Source of the DNA: an uncultured bacterium
GTDB taxonomy: Bacteria > Acidobacteriota > DATKUA01
NCBI GenBank assembly: GCA_965602675.1
Contig: CBFCZO010000004.1
Location: forward strand, 6,512-70,511
DNA length: 64,000 bases
Direction: 5' to 3'
Shown: positions 557 to 61,321 of the stretch, piece after piece
Layout of the letters: the number at the start of each line of letters is the position of its first letter
Numbering within the stretch: position 1 is the stretch's first letter
Translations under genes and position numbers: made by a program
Notes under the pieces: model-generated
Seen by the model: only the letters and a program-made list of their open reading frames with translations
What the model was told of the DNA's origin: nothing
The model's database searches: none

Positions 557-2296
557 TTGGAGAACTTTAGCGGGATGAGTACGCAAATCGGTGACCTTCT
601 AGTTAAGAAGAACCTGATTACTAACGAGCAGTTACGTGAGGCCGAAAAGAAGTCTCGCGAGAACGGCGAGACTGTAACCTACAACATCATCTCCCTCGGC
701 TTTGTGGACGAGCAGCACTATGTCTCCATGCTCAGCAAGCACTACGGCATCCCCAGCGTCGACCTCGAAAACATCGAAATCGATGTCTCCATCCTCTCGC
801 TGCTCCAACCCGAATTCTGCATTAAAAATTCCCTCATCCCAATCCGCCGCAACGGCGCCGTGCTCGTCATCGCCATCGCCGACCCGGCCAATCTCTTCGC
901 CATCGACACGATCCGCTTCATGACCAGCTACAACGTCGAGACGATGATCGCCGGGGAAATGGCGATACGCGAGGCGATCGAGCGCTACTACGGCGAGCCC
1001 GCCCGCAAGGACCACCTCAGCTCGGTGCTGGAGTCTCTCGAGGTGCCCGACGAGGCGATTACGGTCGCCGAGGAGGAAGACGAGCTCGATGTCGCCGATC
1101 TGGAGCGCAGCGGCCAGGATGCCCCGGTGGTCAAGCTGGTCAACGTGGTCCTCCACGAGGCGGTTCAGCGACGCGCGAGCGACATCCACATCGAACCCTA
1201 CGAAAAGAACTATAGGGTCCGATACCGCATCGACGGCATCCTCTACGAGATTATGCGCCCGCCCCTGAGGCTGAAAGACGCCGTCGCCAGCCGTATCAAG
1301 ATCCTCTCACAGCTCGACATCAGCGAGAAAAGGCTGCCGCAGGACGGCCGCATTCTGCTCAAAATGCGCACACCCGCCGGGCTGAAGGACCTCGATCTGC
1401 GCGTCAGCGTGCTGCCGACCCTCTACGGCGAAAAGATCGTCATGCGCATCCTCGACAAAGAAAACCTCATGCTCGACATGACCAAGCTCGGAATGGAGCA
1501 GTACAGCCTCGATATCCTCCTGCGCGATATCGTCAAACCATACGGCATGATCCTCGTCACGGGCCCCACGGGCAGCGGCAAGACCAACACCCTCTACTCA
1601 GCGCTCAGCAGGCTCAACAACGACGACGTCAACATACTGACTGCCGAAGACCCCGTCGAGTTCAACCTCACCGGCATCAACCAGGTGCAGGTCAAGGAAA
1701 AGATCGGCCTGACATTCGCATCGTCCCTGCGCTCCTTCCTGCGCCAGGACCCCAACATCATCATGGTCGGTGAGATCCGCGACTTCGAGACCGCCGAGAT
1801 AGCGATCAAGGCGGCACTCACCGGACACCTCGTGCTCAGCACTCTCCACACCAACGACGCGCCCAGCACGATCAGCAGGCTGATGAACATGGGAATCGAG
1901 CCTTTCCTCGTGGCCACATCGGTCCTCAGCATCCTGGCCCAGCGCCTGGTGCGCCGCATCTGTACCGACTGCAAGGAAGAAATGGAAATGCCGCCGAAGG
2001 CCCTGGTCGATATCGGTTTCACCGAGGAAGAATCCGAGACAGTCAAAGCATATAAGGGCCGCGGCGAGGACTGCAAAAACTGCGGCGGCACCGGCTATAA
2101 GGGAAGGGTAGGTCTGTTCGAGCTGATGGAGGTCACCCAGACCATCCGCGACCTGATCCTCTCAGGAGGCACCGCGGAAGACCTACGCAGGCAGGCAAAA
2201 GCCGACGGCATGATCACTCTGCGCCAAAGCGGCCTGGAGAAAATTCGGGCGGGGATCACCACGATCGAGGAGGTCCTGCGAGAGACCATGAAATGA
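557..2296 (+). CDS. pilB: Type IV pilus assembly ATPase PilB (GspE family).
   Basis: N-terminal T2SS_E_N-like region (GDLLVKKNLITNEQLREA), Walker A GPTGSGKT, Asp/His boxes and a C-terminal tetracysteine CTDC...CKNCGG. GGAGA RBS at 559-563 suggests the true start may be the ATG at 575 (MSTQIGDLL). Confidence 0.93.
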   Translation: MENFSGMSTQIGDLLVKKNLITNEQLREAEKKSRENGETVTYNIISLGFVDEQHYVSMLSKHYGIPSVDLENIEIDVSILSLLQPEFCIKNSLIPIRRNGAVLVIAIADPANLFAIDTIRFMTSYNVETMIAGEMAIREAIERYYGEPARKDHLSSVLESLEVPDEAITVAEEEDELDVADLERSGQDAPVVKLVNVVLHEAVQRRASDIHIEPYEKNYRVRYRIDGILYEIMRPPLRLKDAVASRIKILSQLDISEKRLPQDGRILLKMRTPAGLKDLDLRVSVLPTLYGEKIVMRILDKENLMLDMTKLGMEQYSLDILLRDIVKPYGMILVTGPTGSGKTNTLYSALSRLNNDDVNILTAEDPVEFNLTGINQVQVKEKIGLTFASSLRSFLRQDPNIIMVGEIRDFETAEIAIKAALTGHLVLSTLHTNDAPSTISRLMNMGIEPFLVATSVLSILAQRLVRRICTDCKEEMEMPPKALVDIGFTEEESETVKAYKGRGEDCKNCGGTGYKGRVGLFELMEVTQTIRDLILSGGTAEDLRRQAKADGMITLRQSGLEKIRAGITTIEEVLRETMK

Positions 2297-2351
2297 CGTC
2301 TCGTCACGCCCCGCCGCGTTAAACGGAGCAAAACCGGAAGGAGCCGAATAG

Positions 2352-3488
2352 ATGAGCACGGAGATGTCGCTGCACTCGCTGCTCAAGACAATGATCGAGC
2401 AGAGGGCAAGCGACCTGCATATCACCACTGGCAGTCCACCGCAGATTCGCATCGACGGGCGCTTGGTTCCAATCAACACGCCCGCGCTGAAACCGACGGA
2501 CACTAAACACATCGCCTACTCGGTCCTCACCGAAGCTCAGAAGCACCGCTTGGAGGAAGGCCTCCAGATCGACTTCAGCTTCGGAATCAAGGGGCTCGCC
2601 CGTTTCCGCGCAAACGTATATACGCAGCGAGGTTCGATCGCAGCGGCGTACAGGTTGATTCCATGGGAAATCATGGATTTCGGTAAGCTCGGAGTGCCGC
2701 AGGTCGTCTCGAACCTCTGCGACAGGCCGCGCGGCCTGGTGCTCGTCACCGGCCCCACCGGCAGCGGAAAAAGCACGACTCTCGCGGCGATGATCGACAA
2801 AATCAACCGCGAAAAGCCGTTCCATATACTCACGATCGAGGACCCGATCGAATACATCCACTCCCACAAGCGCTGCCTCGTCAACCAGCGCGAGCTGCAC
2901 GCCGACACCCACTCCTTTGCCGATTCCCTCCGTGCCGTCCTGCGCCAGGATCCCGACGTGGTGCTCGTGGGCGAGATGCGCGACCTCGAGACGATGGAGG
3001 CCGCCCTGACCATCGCCGAAACCGGCCACCTCACCTTCGCCACCCTACACACCAACTCCGCCGCACAGTCGATCAACCGCATGGTCGATGCCTTCCCGGC
3101 GCATCAGCAGAGCCAGGTTCGCGCCCAGCTCAGCTTTGTGCTCGAAGGAATCCTCTGCCAGTCCCTGCTCCCGCGACAGGGCGGCTCCGGCCGCGTGCTG
3201 GCGATGGAAATACTTATCCCTAACTCAGCGATAAGAAATCTCATCCGCGAAGACAAGATCCACCAGATCTATGCGATGATGCAAACCGGCCAGTCGAAAC
3301 ACGGCATGCAGACCTACAACCAGAGCCTGGCCACCCTCTATCTGAAAAAGAAAATAAGCCTGCAGACCGCAATGGCGGCCAGTTCCAACCCGGACGAGCT
3401 GGAACAGCTCATCAGCCGTGGTTCCGGAGTCCTCGAGGAGGCCGGTGGAACCAGACCGGTGGGCGCGGCCAGGGGTCAGGGAGGATAA
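2352..3488 (+). CDS. pilT: Twitching-motility retraction ATPase PilT.
   Basis: Classic PilT N-terminus (LLKTMIEQRASDLHITTGSPPQIRIDG), Walker A GPTGSGKST and the AIRNLIRE motif. AAGGAG RBS upstream. C-terminus carries about 30 extra Gly/Ala-rich residues versus canonical PilT of about 345 aa. Confidence 0.93.
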   Translation: MSTEMSLHSLLKTMIEQRASDLHITTGSPPQIRIDGRLVPINTPALKPTDTKHIAYSVLTEAQKHRLEEGLQIDFSFGIKGLARFRANVYTQRGSIAAAYRLIPWEIMDFGKLGVPQVVSNLCDRPRGLVLVTGPTGSGKSTTLAAMIDKINREKPFHILTIEDPIEYIHSHKRCLVNQRELHADTHSFADSLRAVLRQDPDVVLVGEMRDLETMEAALTIAETGHLTFATLHTNSAAQSINRMVDAFPAHQQSQVRAQLSFVLEGILCQSLLPRQGGSGRVLAMEILIPNSAIRNLIREDKIHQIYAMMQTGQSKHGMQTYNQSLATLYLKKKISLQTAMAASSNPDELEQLISRGSGVLEEAGGTRPVGAARGQGG

Positions 3489-3497
3489 AGACAAGCC

Positions 3498-4700
3498 ATG
3501 CCGACCTATACCTACGTGGGACGCAGCAGAGGCGGTAAGCTGCACCGGGGCGAGCTGCTGGCTGCCAGCAAGAACGAAGCGATCGCCGCGCTGCGCAAGC
3601 AGCAGATTCTGGTGACCGTTGTCAAAGAAAAGGGCAAGGGAGAAGGCCGCCTCTTCGGCCGCGGAAAGGTCAAGCAGAAAGACATTGCCGTCGTCACTCG
3701 GCAGCTCAGCTTCATGATCGACGCCGGCCTGCCGCTCAACCAGGCCCTGGAGATCATCGGCACACAGGTCGAAAACAAAGCCCTGCAGAAGACGATGTTC
3801 GAGGTCCGCCAGGCGATCGAGGGAGGCTCGAGCTTCTCCGATGCCCTCGCAGAACACCCCCACGTCTTCAACGAGCTCTACACCAACATGGTGGCGGCGG
3901 GGGAGGCAGGCGGCATCCTCGACACGATTCTCGAACGCCTCTCCATCTACATCGAAAAAGCCGTCAAGCTCAAGCGCGCCGTCAAGAGCGCGATGATCTA
4001 CCCCATCAGCGTCATGGCCATCGCCATCGGAGTGGTGATCGTCATCCTCTGGCAGGTCATCCCGACATTCGCAAAGCTCTTCACAGGCCTCGGAAAGGCT
4101 TTGCCCATGCCGACGCAGATCACCATCGACCTCTCCAACTTCGTCGGCAATTACATCCTCTTCATCTTCGGCGGCATCGTCGCCCTCGTCATCGCCCTCA
4201 GATGGTACCACTCCACACCGGGCGGCAAGCTGGCAATCGACAGCCTCATGCTGCGATTGCCCGTGATCGGCATCGTCCTGCGAAAGATCGCTATCGCGCG
4301 CTTCTGCCGCACGCTCGGAACCTTGATCAGCAGCGGTGTGCCGATCCTCGACAGCCTCGACATCACGGCCAAGACCGCGGGCAACAGGGTGATCGAGAAC
4401 GCCGTGATGGAAGCCCGCAACAGCGTCGAGGCAGGAAAAACCCTCAGCGAGCCGCTGCGCGACTCCGAGGTCTTCACCCCGATGGTCGTGCAAATGGTCA
4501 ACGTCGGCGAGCAGACCGGCGAGCTCGACGCGATGGTCAACAAGGTGGCTGAATTCTACGAGGAAGAAGTCGACGCGGCGGTGCAGGACCTGCTCTCGCT
4601 GCTGGAGCCGCTGATCATCATCTTCCTGGGAGTTACTATCGGTTGGATCGTCGTCTCCATGTACATGCCCATCTTCGCGCTGCTCGGAGAGCTAACCTGA
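3498..4700 (+). CDS. pilC: Type IV pilus inner-membrane platform protein PilC (GspF family).
   Basis: Two GspF repeats with 3 TM segments. N-terminus MPTYTYVGRSRGGKLHRGEL is typical of PilC. Position is immediately after pilB-pilT. Confidence 0.92.
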   Translation: MPTYTYVGRSRGGKLHRGELLAASKNEAIAALRKQQILVTVVKEKGKGEGRLFGRGKVKQKDIAVVTRQLSFMIDAGLPLNQALEIIGTQVENKALQKTMFEVRQAIEGGSSFSDALAEHPHVFNELYTNMVAAGEAGGILDTILERLSIYIEKAVKLKRAVKSAMIYPISVMAIAIGVVIVILWQVIPTFAKLFTGLGKALPMPTQITIDLSNFVGNYILFIFGGIVALVIALRWYHSTPGGKLAIDSLMLRLPVIGIVLRKIAIARFCRTLGTLISSGVPILDSLDITAKTAGNRVIENAVMEARNSVEAGKTLSEPLRDSEVFTPMVVQMVNVGEQTGELDAMVNKVAEFYEEEVDAAVQDLLSLLEPLIIIFLGVTIGWIVVSMYMPIFALLGELT

Positions 4701-49649: not shown

Positions 49650-52335
49650 AACGCAAGCCCATGCCCGCCGCGTGCACCAGTTTGCTGAAGCTGAAATCGC
49701 TCACGTAAGGAAAAGCGGAGCCGGAATCATAAAACACCACTCCTCCCAGCTCCCACCAAAGCGGGAAACGGAATTCGAGATTGCTGATCAGCAGAGAGTT
49801 GCCATAGACGGTGAACGGCATCTGTCCTATGTCTTCGGGGCGCGGCTCGCTCAGCTCGAATCCGCGCATCGTCGTGATCCCGTTGAAGAAGAACTGCTCG
49901 CTCAGCGGCAAATCCTCGCTACCCGCGAACGGCCAAGCCAGGCCCAGCCGCGCGCCGGCGGCAAGGACGGAGCCGGCGGGAAGCGGCTTGAAAGTGTAGA
50001 ACTGGAATTGGCTCTTGAAGTAATCGGCTTCGCTCCTCAGCCAGCCGGGAGAATACTGGAAAATCGCGTTGGCGAGGTAGCCGCGGGTCGGATCGACGAT
50101 GTCGTCGCGCCGGTCGCGCGTCAGGATGGCCGACACCAGCGAGAGCCTGATGCTCCGATCGAACCTGCTGATGAAGAATCCCTCGGCCTCGTCGAACAGG
50201 TCAATCCATTTATACTGGTAGCGCCCGATGATGTCCCACCCGGCGATGCGGAATCCCGACGACTCGACCATCACACCCTTGCGCCGTGCGCTGAAACCTT
50301 GCTCCCTGACCTCCTCGTAGAAAAAACGCAGAATATTATCGATGCGGCCGCGGAAGATCCTCGGAGCGCGGAAGGAGATCTGGTAGCGCTGTTGCAGGCT
50401 GGAGACCCGCGTGCTGAAGGAAACCTCGGCATTGCGCCCAGCGATGTTGGTGTTGGAGACGCCGAAGGAAAAACGGAGCTTCTCCTCGCTGTCCACGCCG
50501 ATGCCGTAGAGCAAGGAATAAGGCGAGGTTTCACGAACCCTGACCACGACGCGGCGGTCGCGGCGCCCGAGCTGGTCATCCACTCCGCCAACAACCACGC
50601 GGTTGAACACACCCAGCCTGTAAAGCGACCGCTGGCTCTCGGCAAGTTCCCTGCGGCTGAAGGGATCGCCCTCGCCGAATGTCAGGGCGCGGCGGATCAC
50701 GCCGTCGTGTGTGATATCGTTGCCCGCGATGATTACTTTGGCGATCCGGCTGGCTCTGCCTTCGTCGATTTCGAAAACCAGGTCGCGCGTTTCGGCGCTG
50801 CCCACAATACTGGTGGCGATACGGGCCTCGGCATAACCCTCTGCATCATAAAAACTAATGAGGTTTTCCATGGCCCGGGCTACCGCGGTGGACGATAAAA
50901 CATCGCCCGCTTCGAAGCCGGCTTTTTCCGCCAGCACATCCGCGCTTATCGACTCGTTGCCGCTAAACACGATGCTGCGCGCCCGTGTCAACGGGCCGGT
51001 GTCGAAGATAAGCCGCACGTCGACGCGCCGGTCACCATCATGGCGCTCCACCTCCCGGTCGATCAGGACCGCTTGGCGGTAGCCCTCGTTGCCGACTAAC
51101 TGCAGCACACGCCTGACGTCAGCCTCCAGGTTCTCGCGACTGAAGGTGGCCGTTGCGAACCAACCCTGCTTGGTCAGCGACAGCTGTGGCCTGATCCGGC
51201 TCTCTGTTTCTTTATCGAGCCCCTCGATTTCCAGACGTCCGACCTTGAAACCGGTACCTCTTGCTACAGAGAGGGTGACATTGACGGAGCCCAGCTCGAA
51301 ATCCACCTCCACATTCGACTTCACAGCCGCGTCTATGTGGCCCAATGTCTGCAGATGGCGCTCGATGTTGCCGCGCCCGTTCTCCACTATCCTGTCTAGA
51401 GGAACATTGCGATCCTGGAAGGGAATCAACTCCCGCCAATCCCTTACCACCTCTTCGGAGGGTTCGAAAGAAAGCTCGATCAGCGGGCCAGCGTTCACAG
51501 TCAGCCGAATATCGACGGCGTTGTCCTGCCGGTCGAATTCCGGCTCGCCGGAGATGATGTCGATCGTCAGATAGCCATGCTCAATGTAATGTTTTCTTAG
51601 CCTCCCCAGATCATCCGCAAAAGCCTTCTCTCTGAACGGCTTTCTGATGCTTGTGGAGCTGAATATCGCAAGAATCTCCTCCTCCGACATCACTGGAAAT
51701 CCCTCAAGTTCCAGTTTCCTCAGCATTGTCTGCCCGCCGGGGGCGATGTTTATCTCCAGGCGGACTCCGCCGGTCTCGAGGTTGGTCATATGGTAGAGCT
51801 GGATATTGGCGTTCCAGTAGCCCGCCTCCCGGTAGCGCTCTTCTATCGCCGCCGCGATCGCCCGGCCGCGGTCGGAGCCGAAGCGAGGGTTCCGGTCCAG
51901 CCTCGCAGCGCTGACCACGGCGCGCCTGCTCAGCGGGCCGGCGCCAAGAATCGTCACGCCTTCGACAAGCGGAATCTCCTCCAGCTCGATCGTCAACGCG
52001 ATGCCACCCTCCAGCGGCTCCCACAGAGCCCGCACGTCGCTGTAAACTCCGAGCCGGAAGATATTCTTGAGTGATGTTCTCAGTGCGTCGGGCGAGAACG
52101 GCTCCCCAACTTTCATCTCCAGTAGCTCGAACAACGATTCGCCCGCCTGGGGCAGAAAGGTTATCGACTTCACCTCCGCGCCCGGCGGCGGCAGGGCCTC
52201 CTCCTGGGCAGCCAGCGGCAACGCGGCCGTCAACAACAACAGTATCGATGCCGCAAAACGCATCGCCTCACCTGAAGCTGTGTTTGAGGTGAATGTCGAT
52301 CGCATAGGAACCATCTTCTTCACGGCTGCCGACAA
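49555..52335 (-). CDS. bamA: Omp85-family outer-membrane protein assembly factor (BamA-like): multiple POTRA domains plus C-terminal 16-strand beta-barrel.
   Basis: 926 aa. Signal peptide, about 590 aa of POTRA repeats, a barrel with a Gly/aromatic-rich beta signature, and terminal ...FSFGHAF. Confidence 0.85.
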   Translation of the reverse strand: MSAAVKKMVPMRSTFTSNTASGEAMRFAASILLLLTAALPLAAQEEALPPPGAEVKSITFLPQAGESLFELLEMKVGEPFSPDALRTSLKNIFRLGVYSDVRALWEPLEGGIALTIELEEIPLVEGVTILGAGPLSRRAVVSAARLDRNPRFGSDRGRAIAAAIEERYREAGYWNANIQLYHMTNLETGGVRLEINIAPGGQTMLRKLELEGFPVMSEEEILAIFSSTSIRKPFREKAFADDLGRLRKHYIEHGYLTIDIISGEPEFDRQDNAVDIRLTVNAGPLIELSFEPSEEVVRDWRELIPFQDRNVPLDRIVENGRGNIERHLQTLGHIDAAVKSNVEVDFELGSVNVTLSVARGTGFKVGRLEIEGLDKETESRIRPQLSLTKQGWFATATFSRENLEADVRRVLQLVGNEGYRQAVLIDREVERHDGDRRVDVRLIFDTGPLTRARSIVFSGNESISADVLAEKAGFEAGDVLSSTAVARAMENLISFYDAEGYAEARIATSIVGSAETRDLVFEIDEGRASRIAKVIIAGNDITHDGVIRRALTFGEGDPFSRRELAESQRSLYRLGVFNRVVVGGVDDQLGRRDRRVVVRVRETSPYSLLYGIGVDSEEKLRFSFGVSNTNIAGRNAEVSFSTRVSSLQQRYQISFRAPRIFRGRIDNILRFFYEEVREQGFSARRKGVMVESSGFRIAGWDIIGRYQYKWIDLFDEAEGFFISRFDRSIRLSLVSAILTRDRRDDIVDPTRGYLANAIFQYSPGWLRSEADYFKSQFQFYTFKPLPAGSVLAAGARLGLAWPFAGSEDLPLSEQFFFNGITTMRGFELSEPRPEDIGQMPFTVYGNSLLISNLEFRFPLWWELGGVVFYDSGSAFPYVSDFSFSKLVHAAGMGLRYATPLGPLRVDYSWDLSGYDETLVFSFGHAF

Positions 52336-55300
52336 TCATCATCGTCGGACTCAGCTGATACTCGAGCACCAGCACCTGGTTCGCGCTCTTCGAAAGGTTG
52401 CGCGAGTATATCACGGACAACCGGTCGGTAATCTGCTCGCCAACCGTCATCCGCGGCGAGAGGTTGTTGCTGCCTCCGGCAAAGAACGGGTCGATGCGGA
52501 AGCGGTCTATCCCGAACAGCTGCTCGGCGCGCCGCTCGAGCTGGCCCGTGACCTGGCGGGTGATGAATCCGCTGAGCGCCAGGCCTAACAGCTGCTCCTG
52601 AAGGCGCTCGGTGTCGGAAGGAAACGGATTCTGACGCACCTTGCCGACCGCCAGCAGATGCAGAATGTCGATCGTGCTCTCCGAGGGATCCGATGTCAGC
52701 GTCGGATAAAGACGGTCGGGTGTCCCGTGGAACTCCAGGAATACCCGGTACTCCTTGATCTGCGTTTCCGCACGGAAGTCGAAATGGGGTTCGATCCGAT
52801 ACGGATTGACGAAATCGATCACGCCGCTGGTGATCGTATACCGCCGGTCGCGGTAGAATACCTGCCCCTCCTTAACCTCCGCACGGCCCGTGATAACCGG
52901 CTCGGCGGCGGTGCCGACTATCTGAAGATCAAGGATAACCTCCATGTCAGCGAAGTTGTTATCCATCCTGATGTCCTCCTCGCCGCGCAAAGCGAGGTCC
53001 AGGCGCAAATTGCGCAATTCCTCGGCGGCGACCTGCAGGGGCTGCTGCTGCGCCCGCAGTATCTCCGCCTCGGGATCGAAGCGCCTGGTATAGAGAGCGC
53101 TGCGGACATCTATCTCCCCCGTCAGGATGGAGTCCTGCAGGTTGCCACGCAGGATCAGGGAGGAGTCGACCACAGCATCCAGTTCCTTCGGGATCGACAG
53201 TTCCACGCCTGTGCCTTCGATGTTGAACTGGAAGTCGGAGGGCTGAAGCGCCGCGAAATCGAGCAGAACAAAGCCGTCGAGGTTGACTACGCCCCCGGAG
53301 AAGAAGGCCCTCGCACGCCCGATTTCCACACGCTCGTTCTCGATTCGCAGCTCGCCCTGCATGTTCGACAGCGACAGGTTCGACTCCTTGTGGCGCACGA
53401 AGCCGTCGGTCACTCGCACCAAGCCGTTTATCAGAGGTTTCTCAATGCTGCCTCTGATGTTCAGCTCTTCGAACACCGCGCCGCCGCCGAAACTGAAGTC
53501 GGGGAGGAAATCACTCAGAGCCACGAGGTTCACGCTGCCGTCCAGCTTGAAATTGAGACTTAGGGGGGCGGAGAGGCCCACCGATCCCCCCACATTCAGC
53601 TTGTAGATGCCTTGGTCAATGCTGATGTCGTTGAGATAAACGCGGTCTCCGGCATAGCGGATTGTAACCGGCCCCTCGCTTCCGGCTGAAAACTGCTCCA
53701 GGCCGGCTTGCACCCTCCCGAGCCTCAGCTCGGCCTCAAATCCGGTATCTGCCAGCTTCAGGCGGGCGCTCGCTCCGTTGCTGACCTGGAGATAAAGCCT
53801 TGCGTCTGGCATGAATTCCTGCGCCAACGCCGAAAGATCAATTGAATCGTTCTCCAGCTCGAGACTTATCTCATCGTGGCGGTCTCCCAGCAATTCCGCA
53901 TTAATCTTGTAATCCTGTCCGCCCGATGTGATCGAGAGCGCCGCTTTGCTGCCGTCTGCGCGCAACTGGCCCGTGATGTCGCCCAACGCCAGGCCGCCCG
54001 CTCCTGCTCCCGCAATCGAGAAATCGAACAGCCCGTTGGCGGCCAGCCGATGACCGTTTGCGTCGATGTTTACATCGACGGTTCCCTTGAGCTGCGACCC
54101 CGGCGCAAGCAGCTCGACATAGTTTTCCAACTGAATACCGCTTGCCCGAAGCGAAGCGCGCCAGTCCTCGCTCACCGTGTCGTAATCGACGCTGCCCTGT
54201 ATCCGTACGCCCCCGGGACCCACGGCATCCAGATCGCGAAGCGCCAATCGCTCGCCGAATGCGACCTCCGCCTCCGCGTGATCGAAGCTGATGTCGCGAA
54301 ACGTGAGCGAGCGCACCTTGACCTTGCCGCCGCCGACGAACTCATTGCCGATGTTAAGAGAGAGCTGCCCCTCGCCGATCCCGGTGAGGCCGATTGGCTC
54401 CATGCCGGCAAGGCTTTCCAGGCCGGCAAGATCGAGCTCGGCAAACTCGAGATTGAACTCGGCTTCCGCCGCCTGACCCGGCGGGAAGCTGACCTTGCCC
54501 TGAATATCCATGGCGCTCAGCCCATCGCGAAGGCGAATCTGCGGAAACCGAAGCTCCCCTCCGGCCCACTCCAACCGCATCGTGCCGTTGCCGAGACTGC
54601 GGCCCATGTAACGCACGCTCGAGGACCTGACTCTCAGATCGACTGCCGGATCATCGAGCCTGCCGCTCAACCTCAATACCGCCTGGCCGCTTGCCTCGAA
54701 AGAGCGGACGATCGACGCGATCGGGTACTGCTCCTCCGGCGATCCCTGGTCGAGCCCGAGAACACGGCCAAGGTTGGTCAGCGCCAACGCCACCTCCTCG
54801 GTGCCGACGGAACGGGAACGGAGCACGAGATTGAGACTCTTGGAATCCACCGCCCCGTTGATCCTGATTTCAGAGAGAGGCGTGCGGGCAATAAAATTCT
54901 CTCCAAGGAGCAGTGCGTTATCGCTGAACTCAAAATGCCCGGATAAGGCTACCGGGATATATGTTTGGCTGAATATCTCAAAGTCCCTGCCGGCGCCGAC
55001 AGCAGCCACCGCCTCCCTGTACGGGCGCTCACTGCCCTCCTTCCAGGTCGTGGAAATATCGCCTGAGACAAACAACTCCTCGGGCCTCTGCAGATCGAGG
55101 GATAGGGAGAAAGAGCCGTCCAGCCGGCCCCTGACCTGGATCTTCTCCAGGCCGGCTGCTCTGAGAACCTTAGGGATGTCGAGCTGCTCGGCATTCATGC
55201 GGGCTGTGACAACGGGATTATCAAAAATCCGCGCCACCTCGACGGAGCCGCTGACATGGCCGTCGAGCACATCCGCCTCAAGCTCCTCGCTACGGAGCTC

Positions 55301-56317
55301 GTCTCCGGAAAACACCAGCCTGTTGCGCAGCCTTTCAATCAGAAGGTCGCCGACACGCAACCTCGGAACCAGCGTTTCCGCTTCGGCCTGCAACCGGCCG
55401 TCGGCATATCTCAGGCTGCCGGAGGCCTCGAGCCAACCGGATATAACACCCTGACCCTCAAGGCTCAACAGTCCCAGGTCGGCTTCGAGCTCTACCTCCG
55501 CCGTCGCGTTACCCGTCGTAAAGTCATAGCTGCCCTCATTCACGAACAGCCTCGAGCCGTAATCGCCCCTGAGTCTCGCCGCACCTGAAAGCACATTGCC
55601 GGCCGCCGCGAAGCTCAATCCGATATCCGTTGAGACAGGCTTCAAGCCTGGAAGCGTCAACCGCAGACGTTTGAGCTCGGCATCGCCGCGGAAGGCGTCG
55701 CGACCGGTCTGCTTCAGGCTGAAAGTGACCTGGCCGGAATCCATGCCCCAGCCAATCGCCTGACCGCTGAAAAGCAACTCACCGTTGTAAACATCGAGGC
55801 TCCCGATTCTGACCTCCCCGCCCCCGGCGGGCTCCGTCAGCATGAATTCAGGAAGGTTGTTCTCCCCGTCTGCCGTGTAAACGATATCCACTATCGGCTG
55901 AAGCAGAATCAGCTGCTTGATATCAATCACACCTTGAAGGATCGAGCGGTGATCTACCTGCAACAAGACATAATCGATGTAGAGCGGATCGGGAAGGTCG
56001 GGCTTGCCCGAGCCGACCCTCAAACCCTTGATCAGGACTCGGCCGCCGAGCAGATCAAAGCGCAGCGACTGCAGCGTCACCGGCCTGCCGAGTGCCTCCT
56101 CGGCACCGTCGGTGATCAAACCCATCAGCATCAACTCGAAATCGAGCGATTGGAGATAGAGGCTGGCAAATGCGGCAACCATGGCGGCCGCCAGCAGGCC
56201 GTAAAGCAGAATCCTGCCGACTACTGCCGCCAGCACCCGGAAGAAAGCTCCGGGACCGCTTTTATTTTTCTTTTTCTCTTTCGACATCTTAGGATGGAGA
56301 TATAACACAAAGCACAA
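52268..56317 (-). CDS. tamB: TamB/AsmA-family translocation and assembly module protein (N-terminal signal anchor, long beta-helical body, C-terminal DUF490).
   Basis: 1349 aa. N-terminal TM after a Lys-rich start (MSKEKKKNK probable start at about 56287), a repetitive beta-rich body, and a C-terminal DUF490-like tail (...VLVLEYQLSPTMMIVGSREEDGSYAIDIHLKHSFR). Confidence 0.8.
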   Translation of the reverse strand: MCFVLYLHPKMSKEKKKNKSGPGAFFRVLAAVVGRILLYGLLAAAMVAAFASLYLQSLDFELMLMGLITDGAEEALGRPVTLQSLRFDLLGGRVLIKGLRVGSGKPDLPDPLYIDYVLLQVDHRSILQGVIDIKQLILLQPIVDIVYTADGENNLPEFMLTEPAGGGEVRIGSLDVYNGELLFSGQAIGWGMDSGQVTFSLKQTGRDAFRGDAELKRLRLTLPGLKPVSTDIGLSFAAAGNVLSGAARLRGDYGSRLFVNEGSYDFTTGNATAEVELEADLGLLSLEGQGVISGWLEASGSLRYADGRLQAEAETLVPRLRVGDLLIERLRNRLVFSGDELRSEELEADVLDGHVSGSVEVARIFDNPVVTARMNAEQLDIPKVLRAAGLEKIQVRGRLDGSFSLSLDLQRPEELFVSGDISTTWKEGSERPYREAVAAVGAGRDFEIFSQTYIPVALSGHFEFSDNALLLGENFIARTPLSEIRINGAVDSKSLNLVLRSRSVGTEEVALALTNLGRVLGLDQGSPEEQYPIASIVRSFEASGQAVLRLSGRLDDPAVDLRVRSSSVRYMGRSLGNGTMRLEWAGGELRFPQIRLRDGLSAMDIQGKVSFPPGQAAEAEFNLEFAELDLAGLESLAGMEPIGLTGIGEGQLSLNIGNEFVGGGKVKVRSLTFRDISFDHAEAEVAFGERLALRDLDAVGPGGVRIQGSVDYDTVSEDWRASLRASGIQLENYVELLAPGSQLKGTVDVNIDANGHRLAANGLFDFSIAGAGAGGLALGDITGQLRADGSKAALSITSGGQDYKINAELLGDRHDEISLELENDSIDLSALAQEFMPDARLYLQVSNGASARLKLADTGFEAELRLGRVQAGLEQFSAGSEGPVTIRYAGDRVYLNDISIDQGIYKLNVGGSVGLSAPLSLNFKLDGSVNLVALSDFLPDFSFGGGAVFEELNIRGSIEKPLINGLVRVTDGFVRHKESNLSLSNMQGELRIENERVEIGRARAFFSGGVVNLDGFVLLDFAALQPSDFQFNIEGTGVELSIPKELDAVVDSSLILRGNLQDSILTGEIDVRSALYTRRFDPEAEILRAQQQPLQVAAEELRNLRLDLALRGEEDIRMDNNFADMEVILDLQIVGTAAEPVITGRAEVKEGQVFYRDRRYTITSGVIDFVNPYRIEPHFDFRAETQIKEYRVFLEFHGTPDRLYPTLTSDPSESTIDILHLLAVGKVRQNPFPSDTERLQEQLLGLALSGFITRQVTGQLERRAEQLFGIDRFRIDPFFAGGSNNLSPRMTVGEQITDRLSVIYSRNLSKSANQVLVLEYQLSPTMMIVGSREEDGSYAIDIHLKHSFR

Positions 56318-56382
56318 GCAAAAGCTGTGAGCTGGGCTTCAGATAGCAAGCCACTGCGAGCATGAGATGGCCTGGGCCTCTC

Positions 56383-57618
56383 TCATAGGCTTGCCTTGAT
56401 CGTGAACTTGCTCGCTGGTTTGAGCAGAACATCCTTGTAGAGCTCTGACATCCGGGTCGATATCTGGTTGGCTCGCGCCCAAGCCTTCTTCCGCTTCGAC
56501 TCGTCTCCGCTCTTATAGGCTGTTTGCAGAGCGCGCAATGTCGAACCGAATTCCAGGCCGAGCATTATGATATTTCTCTTTACCGTCTCATCGCTCAGGT
56601 TTTTCATCACCCATGAGAAAAAATCGGCCCAGCTCTTCGCGTTCTCGCGCAGGTTCCGAACCTTCTCGGCCCCCCTGCCTTTCGCCGGCACCTTTACAGC
56701 AAGCCCCAGGGCCATCCGCTCGACCATCAGCTTGCGTCCGGCCTCGTTGACTGCAAGATGCTTGTGAACGATCGCCTCATCCTTCAGACTCAAATCGCCC
56801 ACTCGGTAACGCCGGAACCGATTCTCTGATACCGGCTGTTTGTAGCGCGTTTCTCCTTTTGTTTTTACGCCGTGCTTCTTGAGTATCTTACGGATAGCGT
56901 AATTGGTCGGCTTGTGTTTCTTGAGCTCGACGTGGTTGAGAATGTCCGAAAACTTGCATCCCGAGCGATAGAGCTCGACTATCTTCTGCTGCGCCTCACG
57001 CGGCCAGCGTCGAAGTTCTCCCTTCTTCCAGGTCAGCTTCACTCCTTGGCTTTTAAGGATGTCGCGGATGACGTAGCCGCTCGGCCGGTACTCCTTCAGC
57101 AACTCGCTTTTCCTGATGTCATTGATCAGCATGCCGCTCTCGTACATCCTGACGATCTTGCGCACGATCTGCGGCTTCCAGATGTCGCGCCGGCGGGACG
57201 GGCGGAATTTGACCTTGCCCGCGTTGGCCTCCAGTATCCTCACTATCGTCGACTTGGACGTCCTGCAGTCGCCCACCTCGGAATTAACCGAATCCCGGAT
57301 CGCGCGGATCGATTTGCCCTCGTTGCGCAGCGCGACGATCTTGTCAACCAGCTCCAGTTCCCAGAACTCGGGCTTCCTCTTCTTCTTCCGCCAATTCGCG
57401 CTGATACCGTTGGCCTTGAGGATGTTGCGGATTGTGTACTCCGACGGCGACAGCTTGGTTATTTCAGGGAGCTTCAGAATATCTGAAATGAACATGCCCC
57501 CCGCGTAGCTTTCCACCACCAGTTTCTGATACTTCTCTCCCCAGATTAGGCCTTTCTTGCGCATAGACCCTCCGCGCCGGGCTTCCCCTACACCATTAAT
57601 CCTGCTTGGGCGGCTCAA
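56383..57618 (-). CDS. Highly basic protein with four tandem HTH-like repeats of about 58 aa, plus a C-terminal domain of about 150 aa. Function unknown.
   Basis: The consensus KIVxxYxxGxxxxDIxKxxELKxxxPSxYxIRxILKxxGV is seen four times (aa 32-90, 91-150, 151-208 and 209-268). Slightly lower GC than neighbours. Overlaps the 3' end of the BCCP gene by 23 nt. Confidence 0.5.
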   Translation of the reverse strand: MSRPSRINGVGEARRGGSMRKKGLIWGEKYQKLVVESYAGGMFISDILKLPEITKLSPSEYTIRNILKANGISANWRKKKRKPEFWELELVDKIVALRNEGKSIRAIRDSVNSEVGDCRTSKSTIVRILEANAGKVKFRPSRRRDIWKPQIVRKIVRMYESGMLINDIRKSELLKEYRPSGYVIRDILKSQGVKLTWKKGELRRWPREAQQKIVELYRSGCKFSDILNHVELKKHKPTNYAIRKILKKHGVKTKGETRYKQPVSENRFRRYRVGDLSLKDEAIVHKHLAVNEAGRKLMVERMALGLAVKVPAKGRGAEKVRNLRENAKSWADFFSWVMKNLSDETVKRNIIMLGLEFGSTLRALQTAYKSGDESKRKKAWARANQISTRMSELYKDVLLKPASKFTIKASL

Positions 57619-58108
57619 CCACTGCCACGAGCTGACCCGTCTCGACTGATTGCCCGGATTTGACTTTCAGCACTGTCACAATTCCCGAAATGGGGGAACG
57701 GAGCTCATTCTCCATCTTCATCGCTTCCAGCACGACAATCCCCGTCCCGGCCTCGATCTCCTCACCAGCTTCCTTCAGCACCGCCACCACTCTCCCGGGC
57801 ATCGGCGCAACGAGCTCAGCCGTCCCGCCCACCGCGCCGGGCGTCAGACCCGTTCCCCGCATACGCCGTGGATCCTGCACCTGCAGATGATGCAGCCTCC
57901 CTCCGCTTCGGACAAACCGCACGTTGTCGCCGTTGGGCCCGTTCCATTCGACCACGCGGCCGTCGACGATGCACTGCCGGCGGCCGTCGGGCAGCTGCAC
58001 GTAGCGCACGCTGTGCTCCTTGCCGTCGGCGGAAACACTCTCCTTGTCCGATGCGCGTTCCAGCGCAAACTTGAACGGTTTCCCATCTATCAGGATCTCT
58101 CTCTTCAC
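57596..58108 (-). CDS. Biotin carboxyl carrier protein subunit (biotinyl/lipoyl attachment domain).
   Basis: C-terminal biotinylation motif EAMKMENEL within VVLEAMKMENELRSPISGIVTVLKVKSGQSV. An N-terminal domain of about 90 aa is unusual for AccB. Confidence 0.85.
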   Translation of the reverse strand: MKREILIDGKPFKFALERASDKESVSADGKEHSVRYVQLPDGRRQCIVDGRVVEWNGPNGDNVRFVRSGGRLHHLQVQDPRRMRGTGLTPGAVGGTAELVAPMPGRVVAVLKEAGEEIEAGTGIVVLEAMKMENELRSPISGIVTVLKVKSGQSVETGQLVAVVEPPKQD

Positions 58109-58287
58109 CGGTTCGGATCCGTATCATTATGCTGATAAGTGTTTTACAAAAAGATTCTGGCCCCTTTCAAACCAATATGCAACATTTTTTGAGGACAAAA
58201 TGAGAAAAAAACGCAGGAAAAATGGCAACGTCTATACTTCACATTATCCGCTTCAAGGTTTATTACCGATACCTGCGGCAATCTGCC

Positions 58288-59826
58288 TCAGAGCTTCTTG
58301 AAGAGGTTGGAGAAGCGCCCCATCTTTTTCCACTCACAGGTCTTCTCGCCGCGCCCCCTCGGCACCTCGGCCGACGATTCCTTGACTGCCTCCATCCCCA
58401 GAGCGGCTCCAATCACCGAATCATGCTCCTTGTAGGGGGCCAGCACTTCCCTCTCCTCCGTCAGGATATGGGTGTCATAGTCCCCTGAGACGAATTCCGC
58501 GTGATACATCACGCGGTCGAGGAATGTTGCCGTGGTGATAACTCCGCCAATCCGCAGCTCTCGCAGCGCACGCCGCATGCGCCTGATCGCCGCCTCGCGA
58601 TCCCTGCCCCAGGTGCAAAGCTTGGCGAGCAGCGGATCATACTCCACGGGCACGGTGCAACCGGCATAGATGCCGGAATCAATCCGCACCCCCGGCCCCC
58701 CCGGCCAAAGAATGTGGCTCACGACACCCGGGCAGGGGATGAAATTGCGGTCGGCGTCTTCGGCGATGATGCGGCACTCCACTGCGGCGCCGCGCGGGTG
58801 GATGTCCTCCTGGCTGAAGGACAGCTCGGCGCCCGCGGCGATGAACAACTGCTCGCGCACGAGGTCGATGCCCGTGACCAGCTCTGTTATCGGGTGCTCG
58901 ACCTGCAGGCGAGCATTGACTTCCAGGAAATAGAAATGACCGTCCGGGTCCAGCATGAATTCCACGGTCCCGGCGTTGACATAACTGCAGGCTTTGGCCG
59001 CCTGCACAGCCGCCTCGCCCAGCCTGGCCCGCATCGCCGCGTCAACTGCCGGGGAGGGGGTCTCCTCCACAAGCTTCTGGTGGCGCCGCTGCACCGAGCA
59101 CTCGCGTTCCCCGAGGTAGACGACGTTGCCGTGCGAGTCGGCCAGGATCTGAATCTCGATGTGCCGCGGCCTCTCAATGTACTTCTCTATGAAGATCGTC
59201 GCGTCGCCAAAAGCGGAACCGGCCTCGCTGGCGGCCAACTTGAGGCTGCTCGCCAGCTCCGATGACTTGCGCACCAGCCTCATCCCCTTGCCCCCGCCGC
59301 CCGCTGAAGCTTTGATCATCAGCGGAAATCCAAGACCCTTCGCCAGCGCTTTCGCCTCATCCAGGCTGGCGACGGGGCCTTCGCTACCGGGGACCACCGG
59401 CACGCCCGCGTCGATGGCGATCCGCCGCGCCGACAGCTTGTCCCCCATCATCCGCATCGCTCCGGGCGTCGGGCCGACGAAAACCAGGCCCGCCTCCTCG
59501 CACGCCTCGGCGAACGTCGCCTGCTCGCTCAGAAACCCGTAGCCGGGATGAATCGCTTCGGCGCCGTGGTTGAGCGCCGCGTCGATGATTCGGTCCGTCC
59601 GCAGGTAACTCTCTGTAGATGGTGGCGGGCCGATGTGCGCAGCCTCGTCGGCCAGCTGCACGTGCAGCGCTGTCTCGTCGATATCGGAGAACACGGCCAC
59701 CGCCTCGATGCCCAGCTCATGGCAGGCGCGGATTATCCTGACCGCTATCTCTCCCCGATTTGCTATGAGTATCTTTCTGAAAGGAAGCCTATTGTCTGAA
59801 GACATATGCGCGCAACTCCTCCTCAA
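58288..59826 (-). CDS. accC: Biotin carboxylase subunit (AccC-type) of an acyl-CoA carboxylase.
   Basis: KILIANRGEIAVRIIRACHELGIEAVAVFSD, ATP-grasp, and the biotin carboxylase C-terminal domain. The probable start is MSSDNRL at about 59805. Confidence 0.95.
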   Translation of the reverse strand: MRRSCAHMSSDNRLPFRKILIANRGEIAVRIIRACHELGIEAVAVFSDIDETALHVQLADEAAHIGPPPSTESYLRTDRIIDAALNHGAEAIHPGYGFLSEQATFAEACEEAGLVFVGPTPGAMRMMGDKLSARRIAIDAGVPVVPGSEGPVASLDEAKALAKGLGFPLMIKASAGGGGKGMRLVRKSSELASSLKLAASEAGSAFGDATIFIEKYIERPRHIEIQILADSHGNVVYLGERECSVQRRHQKLVEETPSPAVDAAMRARLGEAAVQAAKACSYVNAGTVEFMLDPDGHFYFLEVNARLQVEHPITELVTGIDLVREQLFIAAGAELSFSQEDIHPRGAAVECRIIAEDADRNFIPCPGVVSHILWPGGPGVRIDSGIYAGCTVPVEYDPLLAKLCTWGRDREAAIRRMRRALRELRIGGVITTATFLDRVMYHAEFVSGDYDTHILTEEREVLAPYKEHDSVIGAALGMEAVKESSAEVPRGRGEKTCEWKKMGRFSNLFKKL

Positions 59827-61321
59827 GTTGCTCGCACGGCACTCCGAATACCCTCTCGAGGGTCGAGACGCCGCCGCGGCCGTTTACTTCTTCCTTGATA
59901 TATCTCATAAATGGCGCGCGGTAGCTACCGTCTTTTCCTTCCATCAAGAAATGTACGAGCATCCAGGCTATCGAGTAGTTGCGCACGAGGTTGCCGCTGT
60001 AGAACTGCTCCCGTCCTTCCTTCGAGAGGAAGTCCTCGAAGCGGAAGCGCCAGCCGTGGCGCATTGTTTGCTGCAGCCAGAGAATACGCGCGAGAGGCGG
60101 ATTATCGGCTCTGATGCTGAGCGGCAGCCGATAGATGGGCGTGTCCCCGGCGCCGCGCATTGGCCTCGCTCCGACGAAAATCCTTCCGAGTTGCAGCTTC
60201 CCGTCCCTGTCGATCGCCGAGTTGCCGAAATAGTTGGCAATCCCCTCGTCCAGCCACAACAGCGATCGGTCGCGCGGAAAGCCGAGAATTGTGTGGTTGT
60301 AGTGATGCGTGGCCTCATGAATCAGCGTCCGCAGAGTGCCTTTACCGCGGTTGGGGTCGGGATACAGAGCGATGATACCGCTCTCGTAATGCCCCGCCGT
60401 GCGTACTGCGTCGCCGTTTCCGGACCTCGCCTCCGGATAGAACTCCTGATAGGCATCGAACGAGGGCATCAGCAGCACGAAAACCTTCCTCTCGCTGGTT
60501 TCCTCGGTAATCAGCGGGGCAAATGTTTCGAGATAAGTGGTTCTCAGGTTCCTCAGGATTCGCTCGGCCTCACCGGCCCACCCCCTGTCTTTAAAGCGGA
60601 TGATGAACTCGCCGATGCGGATCTCCCCCACCTCATCGCCCATCAGCCTCGTAGCCAATAGCAGCCGCCCGGGTTCCACACCCAGCGGCAACGCGGCGAG
60701 ATCGGAAGAACTGTAGTGGGTGAATAGGTCCCCCGCAGCGGATGGATCCAGGAGGGCCTTGTCGATGGAGACGGCGTCGGGCGGATCGACCCCGACAAAT
60801 ATCTCCACCTTCATCTGCTTCTTGCCGCCCTCGCTGACGCCCTCACCCGGCTCCAGCACTGGCGTGCCCCCGCGCACCGAGGCTGCCCCGGCTGCAGGGC
60901 CAACACTTTTTACAAAGCTGTGCACCCAGCCCTTGCCGATCGAGAATTCCAGCAGGAACCAACCGTCCTTTTCCGCAAGGGAGAGCAGGTTGGCCTGTTT
61001 GCGGACCTCGCCGATGATCGGGCTGTGAATATCCGGCTTGGCGAATATCAGGTGGCCCTCACCGACAAGCACGTAGTGCGGGCCCTGAATAAACCTCACG
61101 TTTACATGAGGGCGGGGTTGCGGTCCCGCATAATCCTCACGGGGAGGAGTCTTTACCGGAAGAATCTTGAGCATTGCAAAAACGGGATCGTTCCGCGTTA
61201 GCCACTTCCCAGCATCGCTATCGGGCCAGAGCACGATCGTGAAGACTGACGCCGCCTCGGCGATGACAAGAATCGCCGACAGCAGTAGCACCCAACTGGT
61301 TATCTTGCGCGCAATGGACAC
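59789..61321 (-). CDS. DUF1570-family putative zinc metallopeptidase (HExxH) with an N-terminal signal anchor.
   Basis: TM ITSWVLLLSAILVIAEAASVF. HEATHH zinc-binding motif in the context LIHEATHHYNH. A basic/aromatic-rich C-terminal region. Confidence 0.6.
   Translation of the reverse strand: MSIARKITSWVLLLSAILVIAEAASVFTIVLWPDSDAGKWLTRNDPVFAMLKILPVKTPPREDYAGPQPRPHVNVRFIQGPHYVLVGEGHLIFAKPDIHSPIIGEVRKQANLLSLAEKDGWFLLEFSIGKGWVHSFVKSVGPAAGAASVRGGTPVLEPGEGVSEGGKKQMKVEIFVGVDPPDAVSIDKALLDPSAAGDLFTHYSSSDLAALPLGVEPGRLLLATRLMGDEVGEIRIGEFIIRFKDRGWAGEAERILRNLRTTYLETFAPLITEETSERKVFVLLMPSFDAYQEFYPEARSGNGDAVRTAGHYESGIIALYPDPNRGKGTLRTLIHEATHHYNHTILGFPRDRSLLWLDEGIANYFGNSAIDRDGKLQLGRIFVGARPMRGAGDTPIYRLPLSIRADNPPLARILWLQQTMRHGWRFRFEDFLSKEGREQFYSGNLVRNYSIAWMLVHFLMEGKDGSYRAPFMRYIKEEVNGRGGVSTLERVFGVPCEQLEEELRAYVFRQ

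Follow-up and report, generated by a model that had tools for sequence, protein, structure and literature searches.

What kind of protein is encoded between the genes for a biotin carboxyl carrier protein (BCCP) and a TamB-like protein in an uncultured acidobacterium, and what might it do there? The whole stretch of DNA analysed, referred to as the window, is 64 kb long and holds one copy of this gene, which encodes a basic protein of four tandem helix-turn-helix (HTH) units and a helical C-terminal domain. A preliminary description had claimed an open reading frame at positions 56383–57618, and the list of open reading frames indeed contains it on the minus strand, where TTG 57618 is merely the longest possible start. 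Homologues are 393–400 amino acids long and begin with MRKKG (12/12 homologues), which identifies ATG 57564 as the true start. The overlap with the BCCP gene reported earlier is therefore an artefact of the start codon, as the ATG lies 31 nt past the BCCP stop codon (57596–57598). The same ribosome-binding site, GGAGGG, precedes the start in the orthologous loci L005 and L004. The gene and its immediate surroundings are as follows:

56383..57564, minus strand: coding sequence of the four-HTH protein, 393 amino acids plus stop codon, starting at ATG 57564

57568..57573, minus strand: ribosome-binding site GGAGGG as read from the sequence, 3 nt 5' of ATG 57564

57596..58108, minus strand: BCCP gene, directly 5' of the four-HTH gene in every locus examined

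52268..56287, minus strand: TamB-like gene, always directly 3' of the four-HTH gene, assigned by Pfam TamB/DUF748 matches (obtained on the downstream proteins of the orthologous loci) and by tblastn synteny

The product has a mass of 46 kDa and is strongly basic, as had been described (Lys plus Arg 23%, pI 10.4), with a net charge of about +48 that divides into +33 for the HTH region and +15 for the C-terminal domain. Both halves are so basic that RNA binding, or non-specific binding to nucleic acids, would also be compatible with the charge. A role as an RNA or ribosome binder, RNA chaperone or assembly factor would draw on this positive charge and on faint matches of the repeat units to the N-terminal helices of ribosomal proteins S15 and S13. 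We regard such a role as highly improbable, given that these matches fall short of significance (E 0.1 and 0.006), that all better matches are to DNA-binding HTH families and that no translation genes occur in the gene context. The GC content is lower than that of the neighbouring genes, as first noticed (0.55 vs. about 0.60–0.64), but GC3 (0.749, within the neighbours' span of 0.73–0.88) and synonymous codon use are like those of the neighbours. The first two codon positions account for the deficit, which results from the amino-acid composition, with 13% Lys.

The four tandem repeats seen in the preliminary description are significant, both in Smith-Waterman comparison against shuffled sequences and in profile-profile comparison with hhalign, for which repeat profiles were built from 13 orthologues. 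The units begin at W8, W68, W129 and W187 in the 393-residue numbering, corresponding to periods of 60, 61 and 58 amino acids:

57367..57549, minus strand: HTH repeat R1, residues 6–66, from hhalign against R3 and R4, including the basic linker WRKKKRKPE

57181..57366, minus strand: HTH repeat R2, residues 67–128, from Pfam HTH_7 and hhalign, with the linker FRPSRRRDI

57007..57180, minus strand: HTH repeat R3, residues 129–186, from hhalign, with the nearly invariant linker VKLTWKKGELRRWP

56836..57006, minus strand: HTH repeat R4, residues 187–243, from hhalign, where weak matches to the N-terminal HTH of NCBIfam IS481 and ISNCY also fall

Pairs among R1, R3 and R4 reach z scores of about 19–21 (300 shuffles), and the corresponding hhalign probabilities are 99.2–99.4% (E 1e-19 to 8e-22). 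By sequence, R2 is the divergent unit, with z scores of 2.3–4.0 in its pairs and hhalign probabilities of 87%, 95.5% and 84% against R1, R3 and R4 (E 4e-6, 1.6e-8 and 8e-6, respectively). The linkers between the HTH units are conserved, basic and contain Trp. The one joining R3 to R4 (residues 175–188) has a mean column identity of 95%, the highest among all segments of the protein, and the final pair of VKLTWKKGELRRWP, W187 and P188, belongs to the R4 part.

That each repeat is a small, homeodomain-like HTH of three helices, as had been suspected, is borne out by Pfam HTH_7, by profile matches to PDB structures and by AlphaFold. R2 lies marginally above the Pfam HTH_7 gathering score (24.0 vs. 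23.8 bits, E 4e-5) and is the only unit to clear a curated cut-off, R1, R3 and R4 being tied to it by profile comparison alone. Across the family, HTH_7 is matched by 10/13 members at E<0.01, and HTH_7, HTH_32 and HTH_Tnp_Tc3_2 are each matched by 7–10 of the 13; none of the HTH matches is strong (E 1e-4 to 1e-8). Among PDB profiles, the repeat profile matches the HTH of the IS256-type Mutator transposase 6xg8 (E 3.6e-4) and the PAI subdomain of Sleeping Beauty (E 2e-3). The full-length AlphaFold2 model (pLDDT 81) contains four three-helix units, mostly at pLDDT 78–91, each predicted to comprise three helices, the second of them short; in R1, helices are placed at residues 10–21, 26–29, 33–36 and 42–51. 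The geometry between domains is of low confidence in this model (pTM 0.45). The top PDB fold match found with Foldseek is the Pax6 paired domain 6PAX (probability 0.99, E 0.29), and Mos1 is also among the fold matches. A DNA-binding role predicted from sequence and structural models is thus well founded, resting on the HTH_7 score, the PDB transposase HTH matches, the AlphaFold units and the 6PAX fold.

The remaining part of the protein is of a different nature:

56386..56835, minus strand: all-helical C-terminal domain, residues 244–393, predicted by AlphaFold2 as three long helices of 27–32 residues each, preceded by four short ones

Its description as a non-repetitive region of about 150 residues is upheld, as either half compared with any repeat gives an hhalign probability below 1%; a fifth, degenerate HTH at the beginning of the domain was ruled out by the same comparison. 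Modelled alone, the domain reaches a pLDDT of 90.7 and a pTM of 0.85. A PDB fold search returned nothing better than E 0.15, Pfam gave no match, and no sequence relative outside the family was found among 1.84 billion representative proteins. MAPEG four-helix membrane proteins came up in Foldseek only at E>0.2, and membrane association was rejected because the maximum Kyte-Doolittle value over 19 residues is 1.0 and the domain carries a charge of +15. Domain and fold searches of the protein revealed neither a ligand-binding nor an enzymatic domain.

The HTH units are of the same PAI-like three-helix type as those of Tc1/mariner, IS630, IS481 and IS256 transposases and of Pax, with which a basic linker between HTHs is also common. 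The number of units distinguishes them, four here vs. two in the bipartite HTH regions of transposases and in the Pax paired domain, the latter being derived from such transposase regions. The likeness to Pax is one of fold alone: the Pfam PAX model (PAI plus RED) matched 1/40 repeat units (E 0.06). The protein had also been considered a possible match to a transposase or IS-element HTH array, which holds for the type of HTH only: none of the members attains the cut-off of a transposase family, and there is no catalytic domain. Against IS481 and ISNCY it scores 27.8 and 21.9 bits, far under the cut-offs of 224 and 250, and the N-terminal HTH part alone is aligned. Unlike transposases, it has no DDE or rve catalytic domain, and in the 64-kb window there are no terminal inverted repeats, extra copies or mobility signature. 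A search for inverted repeats flanking the gene found none, and the window holds one copy of the gene, whose position between BCCP and TamB genes is fixed in nine distinct loci, so that it does not behave as a mobile IS481 or ISNCY element. Assignment as a transposase or IS element was rejected on these grounds.

The only detectable remote sequence relatives are poly-HTH proteins with 4–10 units of HTH_7, HTH_23 or HTH_38, some of them with C-terminal HNH_3 or NUMOD1 domains, which are matched over stretches of 2–7 repeats (E 1e-19 to 1e-4). The claim that the repeats resemble no nameable family does not hold: they fall within the HTH_7/HTH_23/HTH_32 group, about 115 further representative proteins carry tandem arrays of such HTHs, transposase-like and HNH-endonuclease proteins included, and Cbp1 is weakly matched. 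The top viral fold match, an endonuclease of the Burkholderia phage BcepSauron (E 1.5e-5), covers 232 columns, or about four units. Just the HTH region is shared with the poly-HTH proteins, none of which has the C-terminal domain. Unlike these proteins, which resemble phage homing endonucleases, the four-HTH protein has no nuclease domain and is encoded by a conserved chromosomal gene in fixed synteny; no HNH domain was matched in it, HNH_3 occurring only in P0087 and P0125, two remote relatives. The protein represents a new family within a familiar class, a basic four-HTH protein with an orphan helical tail.

The proteins Cbp1 (three HTHs) and Cbp2 (two HTHs), which bind CRISPR repeats in archaea, offer another comparison in design, as they too consist of tandem, imperfect, homeodomain-like HTHs that arose by internal duplication and are joined by short basic linkers. 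They bind about 25 bp, with the HTHs arrayed 5' to 3' and joined by basic linkers (PMC3597662, PMC10883916), and the closest structural analogue of Cbp2, as of the four-HTH protein here, is the Pax6 paired domain (PMC3597662). The NCBIfam model HTH_Cbp1 (NF040595) is weakly matched by 13/13 family members at 25–32 bits (31.8 bits for the protein in the window; best family E 2e-8), and since the equivalog cut-off is 140 bits, the protein is not a Cbp1 orthologue. It further differs in being bacterial rather than crenarchaeal, in having four HTH units instead of three or two, and in its additional 150-residue helical domain, with 393 residues in total vs. the 135 positions of the NCBIfam Cbp1 model. 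It is encoded within a lipid/outer-membrane gene cluster, and the 64-kb window contains no CRISPR array.

These likenesses bear on the possibility that a mobile element's DNA-binding module was domesticated to give this protein, which would now recognise dispersed repeats (MITE or IS ends, CRISPR-like arrays) and not its neighbours. Its closest relatives in sequence and fold are transposase-like proteins and poly-HTH proteins resembling HNH/NUMOD1 endonucleases, the weak IS481 and ISNCY matches and the consistent weak match to Cbp1 point in the same direction, and Cbp1 binding extends to non-canonical, transposon-associated sites (PMC10883916). However, no DDE, rve or HNH domain is present, the C-terminal part is predicted to be a helical bundle, the scores are far under family cut-offs, and a single-copy gene in fixed position shows no mobility signature in the window. 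The 64 kb are also free of the expected kind of target, as searches for repeat or tandem arrays, CRISPR, Rfam matches and meaningful repeat or inverted-repeat families found none; a CRISPR or other array target near the gene was rejected accordingly. We consider this origin and function improbable.

A design of three or four HTH repeats in tandem is also found in c-Myb (R1R2R3) and in Drosophila Pipsqueak, which has four PSQ repeats of about 50 amino acids. These proteins are eukaryotic, and the present one comes from a different domain of life; the Pfam Myb and HTH_psq models gave no match, leaving no detectable sequence relationship. Each repeat is 44–80% identical across orthologues vs. 17–40% to the paralogous repeats, which fits distinct and conserved contacts made by each unit. 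The same pattern, in which each repeat is more conserved among orthologues than among repeats, is seen in Myb and Cbp1 (PMC3597662).

The complete architecture was found in six clusters (50% identity) among the 1.84 billion representative proteins, and the gene is a conserved gene of a small clade of uncultured Acidobacteriota. A literature search on tandem HTH repeats in bacteria yielded nothing relevant. The gene is under purifying selection, with a dN/dS of 0.13 overall (vs. L005) and 0.09 in the HTH region. The suggestion of horizontal acquisition can be dismissed in view of synteny retained down to 40% identity, native GC3 and codon use, and this dN/dS; the gene is chromosomal and vertically inherited. 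As to other assignments, a defence-system protein was rejected after PADLOC returned zero matches, and a phage protein after PHROGs gave just a weak match to "DNA binding protein" (E 1.8e-4).

The order BCCP, four-HTH gene, TamB is kept in 9/9 distinct loci, down to 40% identity of the four-HTH protein. Acyl-CoA carboxylase genes lie upstream, and tamB, an Omp85 gene and a surA-like gene downstream. The nearest BCCP relatives outside this group, from metagenome contigs, are at most 38% identical and show a CT-BC-BCCP arrangement with no TamB downstream. Two candidate elements flank the coding sequences:

58154..58182, minus strand: candidate sigma-70-like promoter before BCCP and the four-HTH gene, TTGCAT, 17 nt, CAGAAT, with an A-tract ahead

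56297..56342, minus strand: 46-bp non-coding element between the stop of the four-HTH gene and the start of TamB, conserved in orthologous loci

The promoter candidate is only a consensus match, obtained by aligning the intergenic regions from six loci; 6/6 share an unchanged GTTGC core at the -35, and the full layout TTGC-N17-18-xAxAAT is present in 5/6 (window, L005, L001, L004 and L090). A promoter scanner run did not report it. The 46-bp element has the pattern CTGAAGC..AGCTSACAG-TTTTT..TGnTATATC and is kept in 7–8 orthologous loci, to 44% protein identity; it is missing in L007, where the stop of the four-HTH gene and the TamB start overlap by 4 nt. The element is a candidate promoter or operator, and both conserved elements may simply be promoters. 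No second copy was found in the 64-kb window, and a regulon search there gave 7 matches at up to two mismatches vs. 3.9 expected, the sole exact one being the original.

Taken as a multi-module DNA-binding protein, the product would exert transcriptional or architectural control of DNA, its own lipid/outer-membrane cluster plausibly included; this is the reading we favour, with moderate confidence. Its modules would be four homologous three-helix HTHs of about 45 residues each, of the resolvase/Tc1-transposase/paired-domain type. By analogy with Pax paired domains, Myb repeats and Cbp1/Cbp2, the recognition helices could lie in successive major grooves, with the basic linkers tracking the minor groove or the backbone, such that a single molecule might read or coat roughly 40–50 bp. 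The basic C-terminal bundle probably serves self-association or contact with a partner. We infer DNA binding, a footprint of about 40–50 bp, the function assigned to the C-terminal domain and the targets from these comparisons. The gene is probably co-transcribed with BCCP directly ahead of tamB, and it is this position that makes DNA control, transcriptional or architectural, the most likely job; adjacency to BCCP and tamB does not by itself prove that the genes are functionally linked.

A general nucleoid-associated or architectural protein with low sequence preference, in which the C-terminal bundle bridges or oligomerises and the gene lies where it does by historical accident, would account for the pI of 10.4, the 23% Lys plus Arg and the positive charge of both halves, for the lack of a ligand-binding or enzymatic domain in domain and fold searches, for a candidate operator that does not recur in the window, and for the presence of one conserved copy in a core operon in each member genome. 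Against it, the residues of the recognition helices are repeat-specific and kept across orthologues to 40% identity, which suggests specific contacts. Bacterial nucleoid proteins are, moreover, mostly small, about 10–20 kDa, and a protein of 46 kDa is above their usual size. We consider such a general role rather unlikely.

A more specific form of the favoured multi-module DNA-binding protein is a lineage-specific master regulator, which would couple fatty-acid synthesis, represented by the carboxylase genes, to outer-membrane lipid transport and assembly, represented by tamB and the Omp85 and surA-like genes. Its HTHs would read the 46-bp element overlapping the tamB promoter, and its C-terminal bundle would sense lipid or acyl-CoA or oligomerise. 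This proposal is speculative, and we give it a small chance.

The practical value of these findings is modest for now: a corrected start, the removal of horizontal transfer, and the definition of a tiny orphan family whose C-terminal domain has no detectable relative. If the protein reads a long operator via its four HTHs, it would be the counterpart in bacteria of multi-repeat readers of the Cbp1, Pax and Myb type and would offer a natural modular scaffold to recognise 40–50 bp. Should the master-regulator proposal be true, it would represent a new type of bacterial transcription factor, with four modules and a long operator. The invariant position between acyl-CoA carboxylase and TamB genes provides a testable handle on the control of envelope lipid biogenesis in a poorly known clade of Acidobacteriota.

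The gene between the BCCP and TamB genes occupies 56383..57564 on the reverse strand and encodes a 393-aa protein with four tandem HTH units. This assignment rests on the homologues, 12 of 12 of which are 393-400 aa long with the N-terminus MRKKG (among 5.8 billion clusters), and on a GGAGGG located 3 nt 5' of the in-frame ATG at 57564, a site also present before the start in the orthologous loci L005 and L004. The TTG listed below is merely the longest possible start. As the corrected start lies 31 nt past the BCCP stop codon, the overlap between the two genes noted in the preliminary description is an artefact.

Features of the BCCP-TamB region and its carboxylase cluster
56297-56342, reverse strand: 46-bp element between the four-HTH gene and TamB, CTGAAGC..AGCTSACAG-TTTTT..TGnTATATC, the 3' end being an extended -10-like TGnTATATC
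56383..57618, reverse strand: longest ORF of the four-HTH gene (ORF list), TTG start at 57618
57596-58108, reverse strand: BCCP, with a ~95-aa N-terminal extension ahead of the biotinyl domain
58154-58182, reverse strand: sigma-70-like promoter 5' of BCCP, TTGCAT, 17 nt, CAGAAT, with an A-tract before it
59789-61321, reverse strand: 510-aa protein between carboxyltransferase and biotin carboxylase, found in every locus (39-81% identity)

The product is strongly basic, as described beforehand (K+R 23%, pI 10.4; net charge +33 in the HTH part and +15 in the C-terminal part). The lower GC is likewise real (0.55, below the neighbours) but compositional: GC3 is 0.749 within a neighbours' range of 0.73-0.88, the synonymous choice for Lys, Arg, Glu, Leu and Ile is like that of other window genes, and the deficit in codon positions 1 and 2 is due to 13% Lys.

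In 9/9 distinct loci recovered, the gene has BCCP on one side and a TamB-like gene on the other (orthologues 99-40% identical), within a cluster ordered acyltransferase, carboxyltransferase, DUF1570-like protein, biotin carboxylase, BCCP, four-HTH protein, TamB, Omp85, SurA-like protein and Memo. In L007, the most divergent locus, its stop codon and the TamB start overlap by 4 nt. Against L005, dN/dS is 0.13 for the whole gene, with the HTH region (0.09) below the C-terminal domain (0.22), and the 64-kb window holds no second copy. Synteny, dN/dS, the single copy and native codon use argue against recent mobility or horizontal acquisition, the latter having been suspected initially.

Toxin-antitoxin genes occur in or beside the carboxylase cluster of two orthologous loci (HigB/HTH_3, L004 5042-5614; HicB-like, L090 268-525) and are absent from the window. 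The 510-aa protein, odd company for a carboxylase operon, has a hydrophobic N-terminus, faint SH3_3 and DUF1570 matches and a HEATH (HExxH) motif, and may, judging from its sequence, be a metalloprotease. The BCCP extension carries a conserved LPDGR..C.VDG motif, of which D-G-R, C and V-D-G are invariant across the clade; full-length relatives of this BCCP occur in other metagenomic CT-BC-BCCP operons (28-38% identity). Elsewhere in the window (557-4700), the adjacent forward-strand ORFs 557-2296 and 2352-3488 have a 68-nt stretch in common (76% identity, repeat family D6) and may be paralogous genes.

The four consecutive units (R1-R4) span ~58-61 aa, each opening with a conserved Trp (W8, W68, W129 and W187 in the corrected numbering). 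In Smith-Waterman comparisons against 300 shuffles, R1/R3/R4 pairs reach z ~19-21 and R2-containing pairs 2.3-4.0. Using per-repeat alignments cut from 13 orthologues, hhalign matches R1, R3 and R4 to each other with 99.2-99.4% probability (E 1e-19 to 8e-22) and R2 to R1, R3 and R4 with 87%, 95.5% and 84% (E 4e-6, 1.6e-8 and 8e-6), and finds no similarity to any repeat in either half of the C-terminal 150 aa. Together with charge and pI, these results confirm a basic protein of four repeats and a non-repetitive C-terminal domain. Basic, conserved linkers join the units (WRKKKRKPEFW, FRPSRRRDIWKP and LTWKKGELRRWP); no other segment of the protein is conserved as strongly as the third (95% mean column identity). 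Between orthologues a given repeat keeps 44-80% identity, versus 17-40% to its paralogous repeats, which speaks for conserved contacts peculiar to each repeat and against binding by charge alone. A general nucleoid protein, a role compatible with the high charge, is an unlikely reading.

R2 passes the Pfam HTH_7 gathering score (24.0 vs 23.8 bits), and recurrent Pfam matches among 13 members are HTH_7 (10/13), HTH_32 (9/13) and HTH_Tnp_Tc3_2 (7/13). Against the PDB, a profile built from 40 repeat units matches the HTH of 6xg8, an IS256-type Mutator transposase (E 3.6e-4), and the PAI subdomain of Sleeping Beauty (E 2e-3). AlphaFold2, run with the family alignment, yields four units of three helices each and, after them, a helical domain (mean pLDDT 81), although their relative placement is unreliable at a pTM of 0.45. 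The top Foldseek match in the PDB is the DNA-bound Pax6 paired domain (6PAX; probability 0.99 but E 0.29), with Mos1 mariner also among the matches, and the top match among viral structures is the Burkholderia phage BcepSauron endonuclease (aligned over 232 columns, about four units; E 1.5e-5). Furthermore, NCBIfam HTH_Cbp1 matches weakly in 13/13 members (best E 2e-8). All this places the units among the homeodomain-like HTHs of resolvase or transposase type, in agreement with the first structural reading; the accompanying statement that they resemble no family does not hold, as the type is common to transposases and poly-HTH homing endonucleases.

The window protein nevertheless falls outside the named families, on the grounds of sub-cut-off scores, absent catalytic domains or no sign of mobility. 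It reaches 31.8 bits against the HTH_Cbp1 cut-off of 140, aligns to IS481 and ISNCY transposase models over the models' N-terminal HTH only and far under their cut-offs, and qualifies neither as an HNH endonuclease nor as a PAX family member. A domesticated mobile-element module binding dispersed repeats, which would fit the HTH type, is quite improbable.

The family amounts to only six members of full length and three C-terminal fragments in an exhaustive profile HMM search of all 1.84 billion 50%-identity representatives; ~115 further proteins match nowhere but in the HTH region (1-7 stretches), so tandem arrays of such HTHs are not unprecedented. The combination of four HTHs with this C-terminal domain is limited to a very small clade; within the GTDB species set, two Acidobacteriota MAGs carry it. 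The proteins matched in the HTH region alone are distant relatives built as long series of HTH_7, HTH_23 and HTH_38 units in tandem; some are labelled "transposase-like" by their sources, and some resemble homing endonucleases by a C-terminal HNH_3 or a NUMOD1 domain. Metagenomic tandem HTH_7/HTH_23 proteins exist in some numbers (P0087, P0125, P0068), with up to seven stretches matching the profile in P0071, and these arrays are a largely uncharacterised class linked to mobile elements. One family member, P0011 (JGI 3300048837), bears the source name "signal recognition particle subunit SEC65," which its sequence does not support.

Modelled alone, residues 240-393 (pLDDT 90.7, pTM 0.85) form four short helices, then three long ones of 27-32 residues. 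Foldseek returns only generic helical bundles from the PDB (every E >=0.15), including designed repeat proteins, MAPEG proteins, cytochrome c' and the PcaY sensor domain, and no sequence match exists in Pfam, NCBIfam or PDB. A membrane-embedded domain was rejected due to its low hydrophobicity; most simply, this basic helical bundle is an oligomerisation or partner-binding module.

The protein probably binds DNA in one way or another; RNA or the ribosome, which a basic protein might also contact, is a highly improbable target. In its working it may be likened to Cbp1/Cbp2 and to paired and Myb-type multi-HTH readers. Cbp1 is the three-HTH CRISPR repeat-binding protein of Sulfolobales (NCBIfam HTH_Cbp1). 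Cbp1/Cbp2 combine tandem homeodomain-like HTHs with basic linkers, place their modules 5' to 3' on a ~25-bp site and have a linker that becomes protected upon binding, their closest structural analogues being Pax6 and Myb (PMC3597662, PMC10883916). If the present protein follows this pattern, its four modules would sit in consecutive major grooves and cover some 40-50 bp.

Two non-coding elements, both conserved across orthologues, flank the BCCP-four-HTH pair. The promoter sits in the AT-rich biotin carboxylase-BCCP intergenic region, a spacer missing in the divergent loci L007 and L009; from the sequence, the pair probably forms its own transcription unit within the cluster. The 46-bp element is kept in the window, L005, L004, L090, L091, L092, L009 and L001, down to 44% protein identity, is absent in L007 and has no other copy within the window. 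Its length is close to the predicted footprint of four HTHs, a match that is only suggestive. In the window, L005 and L091, the -10-like box ends only 11 nt ahead of the TamB ATG (56287), so the tamB mRNA may be nearly leaderless.

The protein is best described as a very narrowly distributed new tandem homeodomain-like HTH protein, predicted to bind DNA, with an orphan C-terminal domain. A regulator specific for sequence or architecture, which may act on its own cluster, is the modestly favoured role, and the family stands as a well-supported orphan family with an intriguing putative link to envelope-biogenesis genes.
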